Positions 1 to 5,657 of a stretch of 14,548 bases of DNA are shown piece by piece (positions within the stretch are counted from its first letter, which is position 1; the number at the start of each line of letters is the position of its first letter). The stretch lies in the IMG/VR virus record IMGVR_UViG_2529293142_000010. One strand, 5' to 3'. The stretch comes from a virus. Taxonomy: Duplodnaviria > Heunggongvirae > Uroviricota > Caudoviricetes. A model generated the notes under the pieces. That model ran no database searches, was not told the DNA's origin, and worked only from the letters and a program-made list of their open reading frames with translations. The translations under genes and the position numbers were made by a program.

Positions 1-209
1 TCTGTCTTGGAAAGAAAAATTACGTGTTCTTCGGTAGCGATCACGGCGGCGAGCGTGGTGCACTGCTGTACGGGCTGATCGGCACCTGCCGTCTGAACGG
101 TATCGATCCGGAAGCGTATCTGCGCCATATTCTGAGCGTACTGCCGGAATGGCCCTCCAACCGTGTTGACGAACTCCTGCCATGGAACGTAGTTCTCACC
201 AATAAATAA
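1..209 (+). CDS. IS66-family transposase, C-terminal fragment (5' end lies outside the window)
   Basis: Frame is open from the window edge to TAA at 207-209. The translation ...KKNYVFFGSDHGGERGALLYGLIGTCRLNGIDPEAYLRHILSVLPEWPSNRVDELLPWNV matches the conserved C-terminal motif of IS66-family transposases as I remember it. Confidence 0.8.
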   Translation, partial: CLGKKNYVFFGSDHGGERGALLYGLIGTCRLNGIDPEAYLRHILSVLPEWPSNRVDELLPWNVVLTNK

Positions 210-238
210 GCGTCAATACGGTGCTCCGTTGACGCTTA
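207..238. repeat. Perfect 10-bp inverted repeat (TAAGCGTCAA / TTGACGCTTA) with a 12-nt spacer at the IS terminus
   Basis: Read directly from the sequence: 207-216 and 229-238 are exact reverse complements. The left arm overlaps the transposase stop codon. Confidence 0.7.
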
Positions 239-239
239 C

Positions 240-335
240 AGGCAAGGCGACGCGGATCTGGTTCTTTGTTGTTTCCCGCTCGGACTTGAATGTTTCGGCA
301 AGGTCACCGCTACGAGTCTGGTCTGATATGGCCAT
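240..335 (-). pseudogene. 5' remnant of a gene interrupted by the IS66-family element (first 32 codons MAISDQTRSGDLAETFKSERETTKNQIRVALP)
   Basis: ATG at 335-333 is preceded by AGGAG (rc of 344-348) with an 8-nt spacer. The frame runs into the IS-derived sequence and stops at 215-213 after 8 further codons. Confidence 0.45.
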
Positions 336-350
336 TTGATAAACTCCTGA

Positions 351-376
351 AAACAAAAACCCGCCAAGTGGCGGGT
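351..376 (-). terminator. Rho-independent terminator closing the minus-strand cassette
   Basis: GC-rich hairpin CCCGCC-AAGT-GGCGGG at 360-375, followed on the minus strand by TTTTTGTTT (rc of 351-359). It lies about 20 nt downstream of the stop of the small ORF at 397 and is asymmetric, with no T-run on the plus-strand side. Confidence 0.75.
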
Positions 377-396
377 CTACAGGAACAACTCTAAGT

Positions 397-567
397 TTAT
401 TTTTTCTGTTTAAAATTGTCCAACTCAGGTTCTTTAACGCTTTCTGTCATGTAATCCAATCCATCAAAAGGTACTTCAAGCATTATACTGCTTTCATAAT
501 CAGCCATGGATTGCTCTGCTTGCGTTGGCTTACTTTGCTGTGAGTTGTCATTATTTGATGTTGTCAT
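397..567 (-). CDS. Small acidic hypothetical protein, 56 aa (MTTSNNDNSQQSKPTQAEQSMADYESSIMLEVPFDGLDYMTESVKEPELDNFKQKK); below the ORF-track length cutoff
   Basis: ATG at 567-565 lies 3 nt after the stop of the upstream membrane-protein gene (571-573); stop TAA at 399-397, just before the terminator. Same strand and same AT-rich composition as its neighbour. Hand translation gives 11 D/E, 5 K and no R. Confidence 0.5.
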   Translation of the reverse strand: MTTSNNDNSQQSKPTQAEQSMADYESSIMLEVPFDGLDYMTESVKEPELDNFKQKK

Positions 568-570
568 CAA

Positions 571-1125
571 CTATGCCTTATTTATCAAAAGAAAAGTAAC
601 CGATAATATGAAAAAACCGAAAGATAACGCAATTCCTTCAAAAAGATAACGAGCATAAACTGCCTTTTCTTTATGAAGACTTTCGATCAATTCAACAGCT
701 TTACCATACTGAAACATATGGTATCTAAGCGTTTTAATTTTATCACCGTAAAGTAAAAAATCATGCTCTTCTTTTCGCTTATGAATAGGCATTTTTGGTA
801 TATCTTTCAGTCCCCAAGTACGCCATAGGAAAAAAAAGCACATAACAATACAAACAAAGCATAGATATGCACAAAGTATAGATAATGTTAAAAACCAATT
901 ACTCTTTAGCCCACTTTTGAAATCAACAGTCCCAAATACAGCCAGTAGAGCAGAGGTTTCTACAGCTAAAATAGCAAGAAGGTAGTTAACTTTGTCCTCA
1001 AGACGACGATATGTTGATTTTGCTTCCTCATATCTATCTTTATAATATGACGAAATAAAATCAGCGCCTATAGTCTCAATTGCCTTTTGTTCTTCTGTTG
1101 TATCTATTGGCGAACACTTGCTCAT
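571..1125 (-). CDS. Hypothetical inner-membrane protein, 184 aa, three predicted TM helices with a charged N-terminal region of about 45 aa and a basic loop of about 60 aa
   Basis: ORF track. Hydrophobic stretches are LLAILAVETSALLAVFGTV, FLTLSILCAYLCFVCIVMCFFFLW and GIALSFGFFILSVTFLLI. Very AT-rich, roughly one third G+C by eye against over half in the structural genes. ATG at 1125 lies 7 nt after the stop of the upstream gene. Confidence 0.75.
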   Translation of the reverse strand: MSKCSPIDTTEEQKAIETIGADFISSYYKDRYEEAKSTYRRLEDKVNYLLAILAVETSALLAVFGTVDFKSGLKSNWFLTLSILCAYLCFVCIVMCFFFLWRTWGLKDIPKMPIHKRKEEHDFLLYGDKIKTLRYHMFQYGKAVELIESLHKEKAVYARYLFEGIALSFGFFILSVTFLLINKA

Positions 1126-1132
1126 TTCTTAA

Positions 1133-1480
1133 TCAACCAACAACTTTCTTACACGGGAAAGAGCCAATAATTTTCGGAGCATCCATGCTGTTCTGCAACA
1201 ACTGGACGTTCAGGAAACGCGTTTTAGTGCCCGGTCGATGGATATACTCGAACCCATAATTGTTGCCATCTTTGGCAGGCATCAACTCCATTTTGATCTG
1301 CATGCCTGTACCGTCTTTACCCAACATTTTTACTTTTTGGGATGTTACTGTTTCGCCATTGATTTTAAATAATGAGTCAGGGATCGCATCCATACGAAAG
1401 TTGCCGCATTGCATCGTTATGGTGTTTGCACTTACACCAACAGACACTAACGCCAGCAATGAAAATATCCATCGTTTCAT
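1133..1480 (-). CDS. Hypothetical secreted/periplasmic protein, 115 aa, with an N-terminal signal peptide (MKRWIFSLLALVSVGVSA|NT) and two Cys in the mature part
   Basis: The ORF-track frame 1133..1561 begins at an upstream alternative start; the first ATG with a Shine-Dalgarno (GAGAGGA upstream) is at 1480-1478, and the protein from there opens with a classic positive-hydrophobic-AXA signal peptide. There is no lipobox, so it is not called a lipoprotein. The start is 2 nt after the stop of the frameshifted tail gene. Confidence 0.7.
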   Translation of the reverse strand: MKRWIFSLLALVSVGVSANTITMQCGNFRMDAIPDSLFKINGETVTSQKVKMLGKDGTGMQIKMELMPAKDGNNYGFEYIHRPGTKTRFLNVQLLQNSMDAPKIIGSFPCKKVVG

Positions 1481-1482
1481 TT

Positions 1483-1978
1483 CTATAATCCTCTCTGCAA
1501 AGCAGTGCTGGATGGCATATCCTGCGCACCGCGCGCTTCGCACATCATATCCATGTACCACGCCTGGCCCCTTGTGTCGCCAGTGTACATAATCCCGCGC
1601 ACAATATAAACGCCATCCGTTGCGATGCTGGCAGGCTGCGATGTGGTGCCGCTTAGCGTGATATTTCCATCCGTGTTCTGGTCGGTGATCTGACCACCAG
1701 CCATCGCAATATCGTTGTTCGACAACGCGGTACGATACACTGCAGCCTGATCCAGCTGAATGAGTCCGTTAACCCGGATGTTCGGATTAATAAGCGCGCG
1801 GACGTTTACGCCGTTACCGATAGTCTGCTGCGGCATGCCAATAAGCCCGGTAGCGCTGTTTGAGCACAATCGCTTCATGAACATATTCGTTATTCGCCAC
1901 CATCTGGCGCTGACCATCCACGAATTGCCATGTTGCGCCACATTGCCCGGCTACGTTATCCATTAGGTGCCGCGTCAT
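1483..1978 (-). pseudogene. Phage tail-region gene of about 165 aa carrying an internal +1 frameshift (two overlapping reading frames)
   Basis: An ATG at 1978-1976 overlaps the stop of the upstream 190-aa gene in an ATGA arrangement and opens a frame with good codon usage that stops at 1816-1814 (MTRHLMDNVAGQCGATWQFVDGQRQMVANNEYVHEAIVLKQRYRAYWHAAADYR). The ORF-track frame 1483..1941 has junk-like W/C-rich translation at its 5' end but well-behaved codons from about 1830 down to its stop. Total length 496 nt is not a multiple of 3. Confidence 0.45.
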
Positions 1979-2547
1979 GCCAAAGAGTACCGCCCCCGGG
2001 GGAATACAGTAGCAGGCATTTCAGGCGTCAGGCCTTCGGTCGCGCCTTTGGCTTCGAAGTCTTTCATCAGCGCACGGTTTACATCAGCGACCGTGTAACC
2101 GGCAGCCAGCGTCTGTGAGGTTATACTGGTGGCAAAAGCCAGATCAGTATCTGCTGCCTGAATCAGGACGTAGGAATCAACCGGACTGTCTTTTCCTGTA
2201 ACCGAGTAGCGAATTTCACCGCTGAAAATCAGTCCGTAGTTGCGACCATCACTCTGGCCCACGTCCGCCGCGTCAACTTCCCGCACTGTCCCGACGTCGC
2301 TTGCCGACACCTCCGGCGCGATACCGTCGTAACCCGCAATCAGACGCACTTTCGAAAACTCCTGCCCGGTAATTCGGTTCACAGTATCTGCCGAGAGGTT
2401 ATAAATTTTGATAGTCCCTACCCGGGACGCGCTGCTGATGTTGAACCAGTCGATCGTAAAGGTGACTTTGAAATCACTTAGCTCAATTCCCTGACCGTTC
2501 CCGTCCACAAGCTGCAGCTCGAAATGTCTCATCCAGTTCTGTGACAT
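1975..2547 (-). CDS. Phage tail component, 190 aa (function not recognised)
   Basis: ORF track; ATG start; 2-nt gap after the upstream gene stop; typical codon usage; sits in the post-tape-measure tail gene chain. Confidence 0.7.
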   Translation of the reverse strand: MSQNWMRHFELQLVDGNGQGIELSDFKVTFTIDWFNISSASRVGTIKIYNLSADTVNRITGQEFSKVRLIAGYDGIAPEVSASDVGTVREVDAADVGQSDGRNYGLIFSGEIRYSVTGKDSPVDSYVLIQAADTDLAFATSITSQTLAAGYTVADVNRALMKDFEAKGATEGLTPEMPATVFPRGRYSLA

Positions 2548-2549
2548 GC

Positions 2550-2852
2550 TTACTCCGTTGATACCAGTAAATGGCTGCGACCGCCCAGGTCAGTTTTTGT
2601 GGGGTAATCCTGTGTGTTGTCATCACAGACCACCACCAGCTTAAAACCAAGCCCCATACAGGCGTACTGCGCCAGCAGGTCAGCACCAGTGACGAGAGGA
2701 ATACCGGAGATTACCGGCTCCCCTCTGTCGCTCTGCAGGTCCATAATCCAGTACAGATCGCGCCATATGATGCTAATCCACCAGGTGACACCACCCAGGA
2801 CGATGCTGAACTGCTGGTTGTCCGCTGTCAGCGGAATTTCCTGAATTGTCAT
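2550..2852 (-). CDS. Phage tail component, 100 aa (function not recognised)
   Basis: ORF track; its ATG overlaps the stop of the upstream 41-aa ORF (ATGA). Confidence 0.65.
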   Translation of the reverse strand: MTIQEIPLTADNQQFSIVLGGVTWWISIIWRDLYWIMDLQSDRGEPVISGIPLVTGADLLAQYACMGLGFKLVVVCDDNTQDYPTKTDLGGRSHLLVSTE

Positions 2853-2974
2853 TTGCCGCCCCCCAGTAATGACGCCACGTTACCCGTGATGCTTTTCAGC
2901 AGTGAAGTATCTGGAGGTTTTGTGGTTTTGTTGCCGCTGTTCTGTACCGCCGACGTGCTGGCCCCTTCCTTCAT
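2849..2974 (-). CDS. Small hypothetical protein, 41 aa (MKEGASTSAVQNSGNKTTKPPDTSLLKSITGNVASLLGGGK); not in the ORF track
   Basis: Its ATG (2974-2972) overlaps the TGA of the upstream ORF and its TGA (2851-2849) overlaps the ATG of the downstream ORF, both as ATGA. Codon usage looks ordinary. Confidence 0.4.
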   Translation of the reverse strand: MKEGASTSAVQNSGNKTTKPPDTSLLKSITGNVASLLGGGK

Positions 2975-3270
2975 GTTGGTTTTATCCGCGACGGTAATCT
3001 GCTATGTCCGGGAGATAATGACCTCCCGTCAGGGTGAGGACGGCGGACTAGGACGTTTTCGGTTGTCTTGTCCGTCGTCACTTCCAGCGCCCGGATCAAC
3101 ATGTTGCTGTACAGCCGTTTACCGGTTACCACATCGAAGGGGATACGGCTTTCCTGCAGACCCAGTAGCTCCTGATACGTCTGCTGAGGACTCAGGCCGA
3201 GCAGGCTGGTAGCCGTCAGGTTACTGGCAAAATCCAGCAATGCGCCGCCACCGGCAAAACCAACCTCCAT
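2971..3270 (-). CDS. Phage tail component, about 99 aa
   Basis: ORF track frame 2971..3276 begins at a GTG; the first ATG is at 3270. The 5' two thirds have good codon usage; the last 25 or so codons are rich in rare codons (AGG, AGA, ATA, TTA), so the true 3' end is uncertain. Confidence 0.55.
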   Translation of the reverse strand: MEVGFAGGGALLDFASNLTATSLLGLSPQQTYQELLGLQESRIPFDVVTGKRLYSNMLIRALEVTTDKTTENVLVRRPHPDGRSLSPGHSRLPSRIKPT

Positions 3271-3439: not shown

Positions 3440-5428
3440 CTAACCCACCCTCACCTGATTACTTCGCATGACCTGAGCATTTGCAGACTGTTGCCGACGT
3501 GCAACCTCATTACCGACAGCGTGCGGATCTCCGCCACCGTAAATGTGGTAGGTATTTTGCTGGTTAACCTCTGTCACTTTGCCACTAATTCCCGCCACGG
3601 CAGCCTTATTAATCAGCTCTCGAGAATAGATATTTCTTCCATTCTCATGCTGGATAATGCTGCTCATCAATGCTGACATGGTTTGCGGATCGCTCATATT
3701 CAGGGCAGCCCGGGGATCCACTCCCAGTCGTTGCGATACAGCCCTGATATACGCGGTTGTGTTGTTATTATCAGACGCAGGTGCCCAGGTAGAGATAATT
3801 TTCTCCACACTGTTTATTCCCCGTCCGGCGTACAGCATTAACTGACGAGCAAGAGCCCGTAATCCATCAAAAGCGGTTTCAAATCTGGCAAATCGCCCGC
3901 CCGGGCGTTCAAGAGAAGCCCCAGCCTGACCAGCAAAATTAAGATTTCCCGGATTGTTATTCCGTTCTCCTCGTTTCGTAGCCTGTGCATGTTGTTCCGG
4001 CTCATCATCACCAAACCAGCCGCGTACCGTCCGGCCCACACTGCGGGGATCAAATCCCCAGTGCTCTTTAATCCAGTCGGCAGTACTGTTAGCGCTGTCT
4101 GTAACCATCGGCATCGCTGACGGATTTTCGCTGCCCTGATTAAGTATCTGTTTGCCGATGCTGACGGCATCAGCCCAGCGGCCATCTTTGATAGCGTTGA
4201 GCAGGTCGGCGATCATGTTCAGCATTTTGCTGAATTCGCCCATCTGGTCGATGAAGTTGCTGAAATCCCACTTCAGGGACCATGATTTGGGGTCAATATT
4301 GAGCAGTTTCGCCAGCGCTTTCACCAGGTCGTTAACGGTCGTTTCAAGGTCACGAACCATCTTCAGCGCGGCATCAACCTCCGGTTTCCACTTGCCCCAG
4401 TCAATCAGGCTGTCGCCGCCTTCCTTCCAGGTCTGATAGTCCTCCCACAGGAGGGCAATCCCCGCCGCCAGCGCGGTAATGAGGCCAATCGGCGACATCC
4501 AGAACGTACTGTTCAGAATGCGCAGCGCAATCGTCAGTGCGCCAAACAGCGAGATCAACTCCCGCGTTTGCTTATCCAGCGATTGCCACCAGGTGATGAG
4601 GCCTGATGTCCCCTCAATCAGTCTGAAGAACAACCGCCCGATAATATCCCCGAGCGCCAGAATGCCTTTTATGGCTTTCGTCAGGGTCTGCTCGATACGC
4701 GGGAAGTTGTCCAGGATATGGCGGCGCAGAGTGTCCAGCGAACCCGCAAGCCCACCCGCAAGATTAGAGCCGATTTTGTCACGGGCCATGCCTGCCATCG
4801 CGCCAAACTCACGCAGGGAGGTCATAAATTTGTTGGAGCTTCTGGCCGCCTCGTCAGCATTGAAGCCGATAGCTTTCGCCATTGCGCTGTACTGCCCGGA
4901 GAAGCCACCCACACCGCGACGCACAGCCATCAGGGTATTTTCGTCAATGCCCAGCATCTGCGCATACTGGTTAGCACGGTAATACGGCATGTCGCTGAGC
5001 TTCTGGCCTACCCCTGTAAAAATAGCGGCCATGTCACGCATGTTACCGCTGGCATCCCGTGTCTGTACCCCCAGACGATTCAGAAATCCCTCCGCCCCGG
5101 GATTATTACGAATAAACCGGGAGAGGTTTTCCAGAGAAGATCGCGCAGCGTCCACGCTGCCGCCAACCTGCGAAACCGCATAGCCAATAGACTGAATTCC
5201 CTGGACTGTCGCTCCGGTGCGCTGTGACGCCCAGTAAAGATTATCCAGACCGGAGGCGATCTTAGCCGTGAAGGCCACCACGGACAGCGCAGTTCCTTCG
5301 ACGGCCAGCCCCATTTTGATGACATTTGCAGTTGTACCGGCGAGGACAGAACCGAATTTTTTCGCTCCTGCATCATCCACACTGAAGCCAAGCGAGACGA
5401 GGAAATCTTTAATAGTTTCAGCGTTCAT
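3440..5428 (-). CDS. Tail tape measure protein, about 662 aa
   Basis: Large ORF directly downstream of the frameshifted chaperone; Ala/Gly-rich helical N-terminal part; internal hydrophobic segments (LISLFGALTIALRILNSTFWMSPIGLITALAAGIALLW). The ORF-track start at 5449 is a TTG; the first ATG is at 5428, preceded by GGAGAGAGG. Confidence 0.85.
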   Translation of the reverse strand: MNAETIKDFLVSLGFSVDDAGAKKFGSVLAGTTANVIKMGLAVEGTALSVVAFTAKIASGLDNLYWASQRTGATVQGIQSIGYAVSQVGGSVDAARSSLENLSRFIRNNPGAEGFLNRLGVQTRDASGNMRDMAAIFTGVGQKLSDMPYYRANQYAQMLGIDENTLMAVRRGVGGFSGQYSAMAKAIGFNADEAARSSNKFMTSLREFGAMAGMARDKIGSNLAGGLAGSLDTLRRHILDNFPRIEQTLTKAIKGILALGDIIGRLFFRLIEGTSGLITWWQSLDKQTRELISLFGALTIALRILNSTFWMSPIGLITALAAGIALLWEDYQTWKEGGDSLIDWGKWKPEVDAALKMVRDLETTVNDLVKALAKLLNIDPKSWSLKWDFSNFIDQMGEFSKMLNMIADLLNAIKDGRWADAVSIGKQILNQGSENPSAMPMVTDSANSTADWIKEHWGFDPRSVGRTVRGWFGDDEPEQHAQATKRGERNNNPGNLNFAGQAGASLERPGGRFARFETAFDGLRALARQLMLYAGRGINSVEKIISTWAPASDNNNTTAYIRAVSQRLGVDPRAALNMSDPQTMSALMSSIIQHENGRNIYSRELINKAAVAGISGKVTEVNQQNTYHIYGGGDPHAVGNEVARRQQSANAQVMRSNQVRVG

Positions 5429-5657
5429 TATCCTCTCTCCATTTCTCAATGCGCCGCTGGTTATCCGCTTTTACCGCCAGATGGTCATTCAAGAGAGCAA
5501 TGTCATACAAATCGACAGAGCCATCTTTAAGTGCTGTATAGGGAATTAACCCGGCGTCAACCGGATTGAGAAGGTAGGACAGCCCGTCCGGCAGGCTGTT
5601 AAACGTCAGCCCTGTTGCAGGCTCTGCGTCGTGCTGGTAAGGGGTGTAGGCAAAAAA
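5425..5657 (-). other. -1 frame extension of the tail assembly chaperone (GT-like fusion product); slippery heptamer T_TTT_TTG at 5657-5651
   Basis: The chaperone reads ...GGA AAT TTT TTG...; after a -1 slip the frame stays open for about 77 codons across the otherwise non-coding 177 nt between the chaperone stop and the tape measure start, ending at TGA 5427-5425 beside the tape measure ATG. Confidence 0.65.

Follow-up and report, generated by a model that had tools for sequence, protein, structure and literature searches.

A variable cargo slot in the baseplate block of SEN34-like prophages and a candidate membrane effector-partner module within it

Do three AT-rich genes found side by side in a decayed prophage make up a single exclusion or defence module, and if not, which of them belong together and what might they do? 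The question is raised by a 14,548-nucleotide stretch of tailed-phage DNA (Caudoviricetes; IMG/VR record IMGVR_UViG_2529293142_000010), analysed at its full length and referred to here as the window, in which three consecutive minus-strand genes, named A, B, and C below, lie between positions 397 and 1480. An initial annotation, made from the letters of the window, described them as a horizontally acquired three-gene cassette closing the late operon at its 3′ end. Comparison with related prophages points, with a high degree of confidence, to a different anatomy: a variable cargo slot inside the baseplate block, a B-C gene pair occupying that slot, a gene A that is inherited independently of the pair, and an insertion sequence (IS) that truncates the block just beyond it. 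What B-C does is a more tentative matter, for which a role in abortive infection or exclusion is the reading that we favour.

The three genes are the following.
1133..1480, minus strand: gene A, 115 aa, secreted, an accessory gene of the phage lineage (open reading frame (ORF), signal peptide, homologues, and AlphaFold2 (AF2) model)
571..1125, minus strand: gene B, 184 aa, inner-membrane protein with three transmembrane (TM) segments at about residues 48–66, 77–104, and 160–181 (AF2 model, charge distribution, PADLOC, and phrog_18554)
397..567, minus strand: gene C, 56 aa, acidic (net charge −6), hydrophilic, and without a signal peptide (ORF; phrog_18231)

The coordinates of the three ORFs (A 1480..1133, B 1125..571, C 567..397), the gaps of 7 nt between A and B and 3 nt between B and C, and the nature of the products (a signal-peptide-like N-terminus, three hydrophobic helices, and a net charge of −6, respectively) all agree with the initial annotation. 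So does the sharp drop in G+C content, from 0.541 in the upstream baseplate hub gene, which is co-oriented and separated from A by 2 nt, to 0.335 in B (0.243 at third codon positions). A is intermediate (0.428), C is close to B (0.357), and the remnant of the spike gene on the far side returns to 0.546. This gradient, with the hub above A, A above the cargo, and the cargo below the spike, recurs in nine relatives, and the difference in composition between cargo and backbone that marks morons is found for B and C.

The distribution of the genes separates A from the pair. Among 5426 complete Escherichia coli genomes, the 3′ end of the hub gene is found in 305, A-like DNA in 283, and the B-C pair in 29. 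The replacement polymorphism at a fixed position that is typical of morons is therefore seen for B-C (29 genomes against 305 with the hub 3′ end) and not for A (283 genomes against 29 for B-C). Only about 7–10% of related E. coli prophages contain B-C, while about 90% of related prophages, along with every sequenced phage of the lineage, have A but lack the pair; A lies directly after the hub gene in each matched sequenced phage of the group (SEN34, Mulock, YP3, vB_EcoM-611R5 and its relatives, GZ7, RCIP0034, and Wanchaivirus). B was absent from both the sequenced phages and the plasmids searched, and a profile search of genome contigs with the B alignment returned no confirmed relative. The pair also occurs without a regular copy of A: in Serratia it follows a lipoprotein that is not A, and in Klebsiella aerogenes an A domain fused to a lipoprotein. 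At locus L032, B and C are 99–100% identical to those of the window while A is only 67% identical, and at locus L040 A is 94% identical while B is 52% identical. Alleles of A and of B-C thus recombine independently, and the “cassette” resolves into one backbone gene plus a two-gene module. The initial annotation had treated the three genes as one unit and had named a lack of common inheritance as grounds for giving that unit up; A is not co-inherited with B-C, so the trio falls on its own terms. The proposal of horizontally acquired cargo in a tail-module slot stands for the low-G+C pair in its variable position and fails for A, which is near-universal.

B and C, by contrast with the trio, always travel together. 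A C homologue lies directly downstream of every close B homologue, across four genera and down to 37–45% identity, and the succession of B, a small acidic ORF, a hairpin, and the spike gene is found in Salmonella (L005–L008), Serratia (L009–L011), K. aerogenes (L012–L014), and 14 of 14 IMG/VR loci. Three nucleotides separate the B stop from the C start in the window, and the two genes overlap or abut in relatives. The C homologues were missed by word-based searches and were recognized through the motif YExxI(M/I)xxVPFGDLxVxTES. Adjacent, co-directional, and invariably co-inherited genes, with 100% co-occurrence in the close loci, are what is expected of a toxin-antitoxin-like module. The close homologues of B fall into 22 clusters, and B-C carriers include pathogenic and commensal E. 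coli as well as Salmonella. Two allelic types are present in E. coli, the window type in 21 genomes and a Salmonella type in eight. In E. coli IAI1, the same slot (L046 2231–2937; NC_011741.1, approximately 2730903–2731609) holds both genes intact and of the Salmonella type, with B at 176 aa and C at 57 aa, although neither is annotated in RefSeq, and seven other genomes contain the same unannotated Salmonella-type match.

The surroundings of the three genes explain why they had been placed behind the last tail gene, at the end of the late operon. The following features flank them in the window.
1483..2547, minus strand: baseplate hub gene, bordering the slot on the left (phrog_196 “baseplate hub”, E = 1.8e-41 and 1.2e-27)
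349..378, minus strand: intrinsic-terminator-like hairpin (stem 378..357) with a T-rich tail (terminator scan and fold)
239..335, minus strand: 5′ remnant, about 32 codons, of a membrane-puncturing spike family gene cut by an IS (alignment to the 5′ end of the CB9615 spike gene, which encodes 251 aa)
1..238, plus strand: end of an IS66-family element, including a transposase C-terminus in ORF 24..209 (Pfam DDE_Tnp_IS66_C, E = 1.3e-17)

The window prophage is a decayed SEN34-like (Brunovirus-type) temperate myovirus, whose late genes on the minus strand comprise portal, MuF-like protein, scaffold/protease, major capsid, sheath, tube, chaperone, tape measure, plug, and hub. An intact prophage of E. 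coli O55:H7 CB9615 is 99.8% identical to the window and reads tape measure, Dit-like, plug, hub, A, B, C, hairpin, spike, sheath initiator, baseplate J, wedge, and fibres. According to this gene order, A, B, and C sit in the middle of the baseplate block and not at an operon end; the gene upstream of them is the hub, a spike remnant lies beyond the hairpin, and in CB9615 the block continues from the spike to the fibres. The cassette looks terminal because an IS66-family element has interrupted the spike gene, with the junction at 238/239. Homology to prophages begins only at position 239, the stretch 1–238 has thousands of matching places across 4569 E. coli genomes, and ORF 213..356 continues from the phage into IS sequence. 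The spike remnant also aligns with the start of spike genes in genomes other than CB9615, and we take the family to be Gp138-type (Pfam PF18352). The junction 238/239 is absent from all complete E. coli genomes of the collection, from which it follows that the remaining baseplate and fibre genes have been displaced or deleted in the source strain.

Two further observations concern the structural genes of the window. Relative to the intact 354-aa gene of CB9615, the hub gene has lost 1 nt from a G-run and gained 1 nt in an A-run (positions about 1991 and 1861); these compensating changes are 131 nt apart, split the gene into ORFs of 190 and 152 aa, and could be real decay or homopolymer sequencing error. 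The tape measure homologues at loci L006, L008, and L009 are annotated as lytic transglycosylase or have a precomputed Pfam SLT match, and a Pfam scan of the window tape measure (3440–5449) gave only a weak PhageMin_Tail match.

The hairpin that had been assigned to the cassette as its terminator is real, with a fold energy of −21.4 kcal/mol (z = −3.0 against shuffles), but it is not the cassette’s own. It is GC-rich and consists of the motif AACCCGCC-loop-GGCGGGTTTTTTGCTTTCTGGAG upstream of the spike gene, which was also found in SEN34, 611R5, FP4, 97-3250, SCU-301, CUVET16-465, and the Salmonella, Serratia, and K. aerogenes loci; Mulock has a variant stem (AGCCCAC...GTGGG) followed by a different downstream sequence. 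The hairpin and the ribosome-binding region of the spike gene are kept in nearly all relatives irrespective of the cargo, which makes the terminator a backbone element that is not cargo-borne. It marks the right-hand recombination boundary of the slot, and the stop codon of A marks the left-hand one; megablast similarity to FP4-type prophages stops about 9 nt inside the 3′ end of A. An Rfam search returned nothing near threshold. Besides the window, this strong hairpin is seen at L002 (about 4780–4815), L005–L014, and L015–L018, and with it in the middle of the baseplate block, late transcription in SEN34-like phages and prophages must read through it or restart beyond it.

Between these boundaries, with the hub and A on one side and the hairpin and spike on the other, the relatives contain unrelated genes. 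The slot is variable, as the initial annotation had suggested, and what is constant within it when B is present is the B-C pair, not all three genes. The other occupants between A and the hairpin are as follows.
SEN34: 138-aa N-terminally anchored protein
Mulock: 148-aa anchored Cys-rich protein
vB_EcoM-611R5: 170-aa protein (L004 4333–4845) with an RNNLFH (HEPN-like) motif
E. coli FP4: 121-aa secreted protein
E. coli 97-3250: DUF4282 membrane protein
E. coli SCU-301: 258-aa protein and 123-aa protein

In 97-3250 and SCU-301, the plug, hub, spike, and gp25 proteins are 97–100% identical, yet the cargo is another. The 123-aa protein of SCU-301 (L017 1445–1816) reaches 19.3 bits against Pfam HEPN, below the cut-off of 22, and by motif and profile resemblance the HEPN-like proteins of 611R5 and SCU-301 are possible further defence cargo. 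Cargo slots of this general kind are known from temperate phages, where P2 and P4 prophage hotspots have been described (PMC9122126). The slot reported here resembles them in its low-G+C cargo, its fixed position between conserved backbone flanks, the exchange of unrelated genes among near-identical phages, and its membrane, secreted, and HEPN-like occupants. It differs in that no promoter-like site above chance was detected for the cargo, the terminator that is present belongs to the conserved backbone, and no slot occupant has a validated function.

A is predicted to be a periplasmic accessory protein that has become fixed in the lineage separately from B-C. Its N-terminus is signal-peptide-like (MKRWIFSLLALVSVGVSA, then N), its AF2 model is an eight-stranded beta-barrel (predicted local distance difference test (pLDDT) 81), and a signal peptide and two invariant cysteines (C25 and C110) are common to all members of the family, whose homologues form at least 386 clusters across Enterobacterales. 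None of the three products had been placed in a known family; A matches phrog_3443 over its full length (E = 1.4e-51), B matches phrog_18554 and, weakly, PycTM, and C matches phrog_18231. The NCBI product name “STY1065/STY2022 family phage-derived protein” stands on an A orthologue (98.6%-identical locus, strain EL361) and on one further homologue, and that family itself carries no assigned function. The NCBIfam release used contained no match for A, a PDB sequence search with the A profile returned none, and A does not show the sequence-profile membership together with a partner lysozyme or transglycosylase of the PliC/MliC periplasmic lysozyme inhibitors. K. aerogenes prophages (L012 4098–4988) encode a 296-aa lipoprotein whose C-terminal part is the A domain, while in Serratia (L009 4147–4821) and E. 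coli CUVET16-465 (L018 2216–2941) an unrelated 224–241-aa lipoprotein (LSSCSWDPNG...) takes the place of A. Between L001 and the loci L016 and L017, A is only 59–60% identical where plug, hub, spike, and gp25 are 97–100% identical, with most of the divergence falling in the signal peptide and the first strands. A is thus a diverging allele set within a conserved backbone. It is possibly an exclusion factor.

The AF2 model of B (pLDDT 79) consists of a helix at residues 10–66, a second at 77–104, a short helix, and a C-terminal helix at 129–183. Lysine and arginine residues number eight before the first TM segment, two in the 67–76 loop, and 12 in the 105–159 loop, a distribution from which an N-in/C-out topology is predicted, with almost all of the soluble mass in the cytoplasm. 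Conservation is greatest in the N-terminal helix, predicted to be cytoplasmic, where 15 of the 23 invariant residues lie within positions 27–58 (RYEExKxxYRRLEDKxN...E56); four more fall in L106–P113 (IPKMP). A PDB sequence search with the B profile gave no match. The PADLOC model PycTM (PDLC02365) matches B at residues 31–140 (E = 9e-4, 17.6 bits), and faint precomputed matches to PF18967 (PycTM) exist for Salmonella homologues of B and for protein P0152. A B-family profile recovered 81 full-length proteins of about 160–190 aa at E < 1e-3 among 1.84 billion representatives. When 75 distant relatives of B were run through PADLOC, 21, 13, and 12 members matched three PycTM models (46 matches, best 1.1e-8), and a few matched CBASS 2TM, CARF-TM, or RT-SLATT effectors. 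A Pfam scan of B and its relatives gave a weak signal to 8xMP (PF24838), for which a literature search produced nothing relevant.

B is thus probably, on profile evidence, a remote relative of the TM effectors of Pycsar, which have been described as membrane-disrupting abortive-infection effectors (PMC11224242). The likeness extends to size (about 160–185 aa), carriage on a mobile element, a collinear arrangement of an N-terminal cytoplasmic helix, two TM segments, a helical cytoplasmic segment, and a last TM segment, and profile matches that are weak yet consistent for B itself and for many of the relatives found by profile. There are also differences: B scores far under the family thresholds, no PycC cyclase lies beside it or beside the relatives examined, and Pycsar has no counterpart to C, the obligate small acidic partner of B. 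No cyclase was found in more than 30 loci, comprising the window, CB9615, three genera, 14 IMG/VR loci, and seven distant relatives. B is therefore not part of a Pycsar system, the activation route of PycTM cannot apply, and activation by cyclic CMP or cyclic UMP (cCMP/cUMP) is not expected. A domain-centric screen that names PycTM (NAR 2026) concerns the canonical Pycsar operon with its cyclase and not B-C.

In all homologues, C has a net charge of −6 to −7 and lies no more than 3 nt from B. A read-through fusion of B and C was considered and rejected: the two genes are in frame in the window, with a single TAG between them, but C is in another frame in the Salmonella, Serratia, K. aerogenes, and metagenomic homologues. 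Among seven distant B-like genes with a readable context, four (five by ORF scan) have a hydrophilic ORF of 34–53 aa abutting the stop in the same direction, an excess over the background of about 15% in the fetched loci (P ~0.01); such ORFs overlap the B-like gene at L019, L021, L022, and L024, and one distant relative occupies the cargo end of a Tn7-like element. About 12 of the 81 B-family representatives instead have a hydrophilic C-terminal tail of 50–80 aa. Such tails, as in P0150, P0158, P0165, P0167, P0182, P0189, P0199, P0204, P0207, and P0222, begin at an internal Met and are often acidic. These arrangements suggest repeated fusion and fission of a small partner among the distant B-like proteins.

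From the resemblance of B and its coupling to C, we tentatively favour the reading that B-C is a prophage-borne, cyclase-independent abortive-infection or exclusion module in which C controls B, while holding that it could well prove wrong. In such a module, B and C would be expressed in the lysogen, and C, bound to the basic cytoplasmic face of B, would hold B inactive or would itself be a sensor. Infection by a second phage would remove or titrate C, and the freed B would oligomerize, perturb the inner membrane, and halt the infection. Lambda RexA/RexB, a two-component membrane abortive-infection system, offers a parallel. Both consist of a prophage multi-pass inner-membrane protein and a cytoplasmic partner encoded by an adjacent gene, and in the logic proposed for B-C a partner would likewise control a membrane-depolarizing protein. 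The two differ in having no sequence similarity, in gene order, with the effector first in B-C, and in the partner, C being a probably disordered protein of 56 aa against the 279 aa of RexA.

Several results weigh against a defence role. A promoter scan upstream of A or B detected no sigma-70-like site above chance. The PycTM link is weak, and spurious hidden Markov model (HMM) matches can arise from TM-rich sequences; a Pfam scan found no PF18967 at E ≤ 1 for B, 18 close relatives, or 75 distant relatives, and the cyclase of Pycsar is missing from every locus inspected. Beyond the weak PycTM match to B, PADLOC identified no known defence system in the window, and no PADLOC model matched the alternative cargos of the slot. 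The small ORFs and tails of distant B-like proteins could not be tied to C by homology, since a C-family HMM scored them no better than shuffled controls, and their resemblance to C is positional only. A tail fused after the third TM segment would, moreover, be extracytoplasmic under the predicted N-in/C-out topology, in tension with a cytoplasmic C. Of the link to anti-phage functions that had been suggested for the three genes together, what holds is the resemblance of B to membrane effectors; the three-gene unit and the operon-end position do not. A bolder version seems to us rather doubtful. It would make B-C the first known case of a two-gene anti-phage system that works without a cyclase, a tiny acidic protein gating a PycTM-like effector, and would make the slot a defence hotspot not recognized before, with new exclusion or defence genes in its HEPN-like, DUF4282, secreted, and anchored proteins and in A.

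It is unlikely, though worth weighing, that B, with C, is instead a superinfection-exclusion factor that blocks DNA entry of incoming, especially related, phages without killing the cell. HK97 gp15, which is a moron in the tail region, P22 SieA, and T4 Imm are known examples of exclusion of DNA entry at the inner membrane, and B is an inner-membrane protein encoded by low-G+C cargo in a tail block, near the hub, tape measure, and spike genes. The alternative cargos of the slot are often membrane-anchored or secreted, and an envelope location is predicted for A, from its signal peptide, cysteines, and barrel model, as well as for B, from its three TM segments. On the other hand, A, B, and C had no match to Sie, Imm, Sp, Cor, Llp, or gp15-like families in Pfam, NCBIfam, PHROGs, PADLOC, and PDB sequence searches. 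The conserved non-membrane mass of B is nearly all cytoplasmic and its periplasmic loop has only 10 residues, which suits a cytoplasmic sensor or effector better, and the relatives of B match abortive-infection effectors.

A similarly low probability attaches to B-C being a toxin-antitoxin-like or lysogen-fitness moron that serves prophage stability, envelope physiology, stress tolerance, or colonization and has no part in defence. The tight coupling of a membrane protein to a small acidic partner would fit this, as would the occurrence of the pair, without a sensor enzyme, in both pathogenic and commensal E. coli and in Salmonella, and its retention in a decayed prophage. Against this, B-C is confined to one slot of one phage lineage and was found neither on plasmids nor in sequenced free phages; the family resemblance of B points to defence effectors, and HEPN-like proteins, which are typical of defence, are among the other occupants of the slot.

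We consider it very unlikely that B-C is the phage’s own lytic-cycle pair, transcribed with the late operon and acting in a holin/antiholin-like manner, in lysis timing, or in tail assembly or release. The genes do lie on the same strand inside the late structural operon with no recognizable promoter of their own, and a small membrane protein with a small partner recalls holin-antiholin pairs, but their presence in only a small minority of related E. coli prophages and in no sequenced free phage of the lineage marks them as dispensable, and their composition is foreign to the backbone. Least credible of all is a single three-component exclusion or defence operon with secreted, membrane, and cytoplasmic parts, since the short gaps, the common orientation, the G+C of A, B, and C below that of the backbone, and the adjacency of A to B in most B-carrying loci are contradicted by the co-inheritance data, namely the many prophages and phages with A alone, the Serratia and K. 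aerogenes loci in which a lipoprotein or a lipoprotein fusion stands in front of B-C, and the independent recombination of alleles.

Neither TM effectors nor cargo hotspots of temperate phages are new as such. In the literature searched, we found no description of the position between hub/A and spike in SEN34-like Brunovirus-type myoviruses as a hotspot, and searches by accession, locus tag, and family name returned no mention of these proteins. Within the libraries and literature covered, the slot thus appears to be undescribed, as does a mini-protein paired with an orphan PycTM-like protein.

Were B-C inactive against phages, it would represent an ordinary moron slot in a decayed prophage. 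If it does protect lysogens, as in the abortive-infection or exclusion reading that we favour, Pycsar-type membrane effectors would be redeployable without a nucleotide signal, under the control of a mini-protein, and the slot would offer a new and easily mined defence hotspot with conserved flanks, present across hundreds of prophages of E. coli, Salmonella, and Klebsiella. Such cargo would affect the phage susceptibility of pathogenic E. coli (O55:H7, O103:H2, O45:H2, and enterotoxigenic E. coli (ETEC) H10407) and of Salmonella, and would bear on phage therapy and phage typing.

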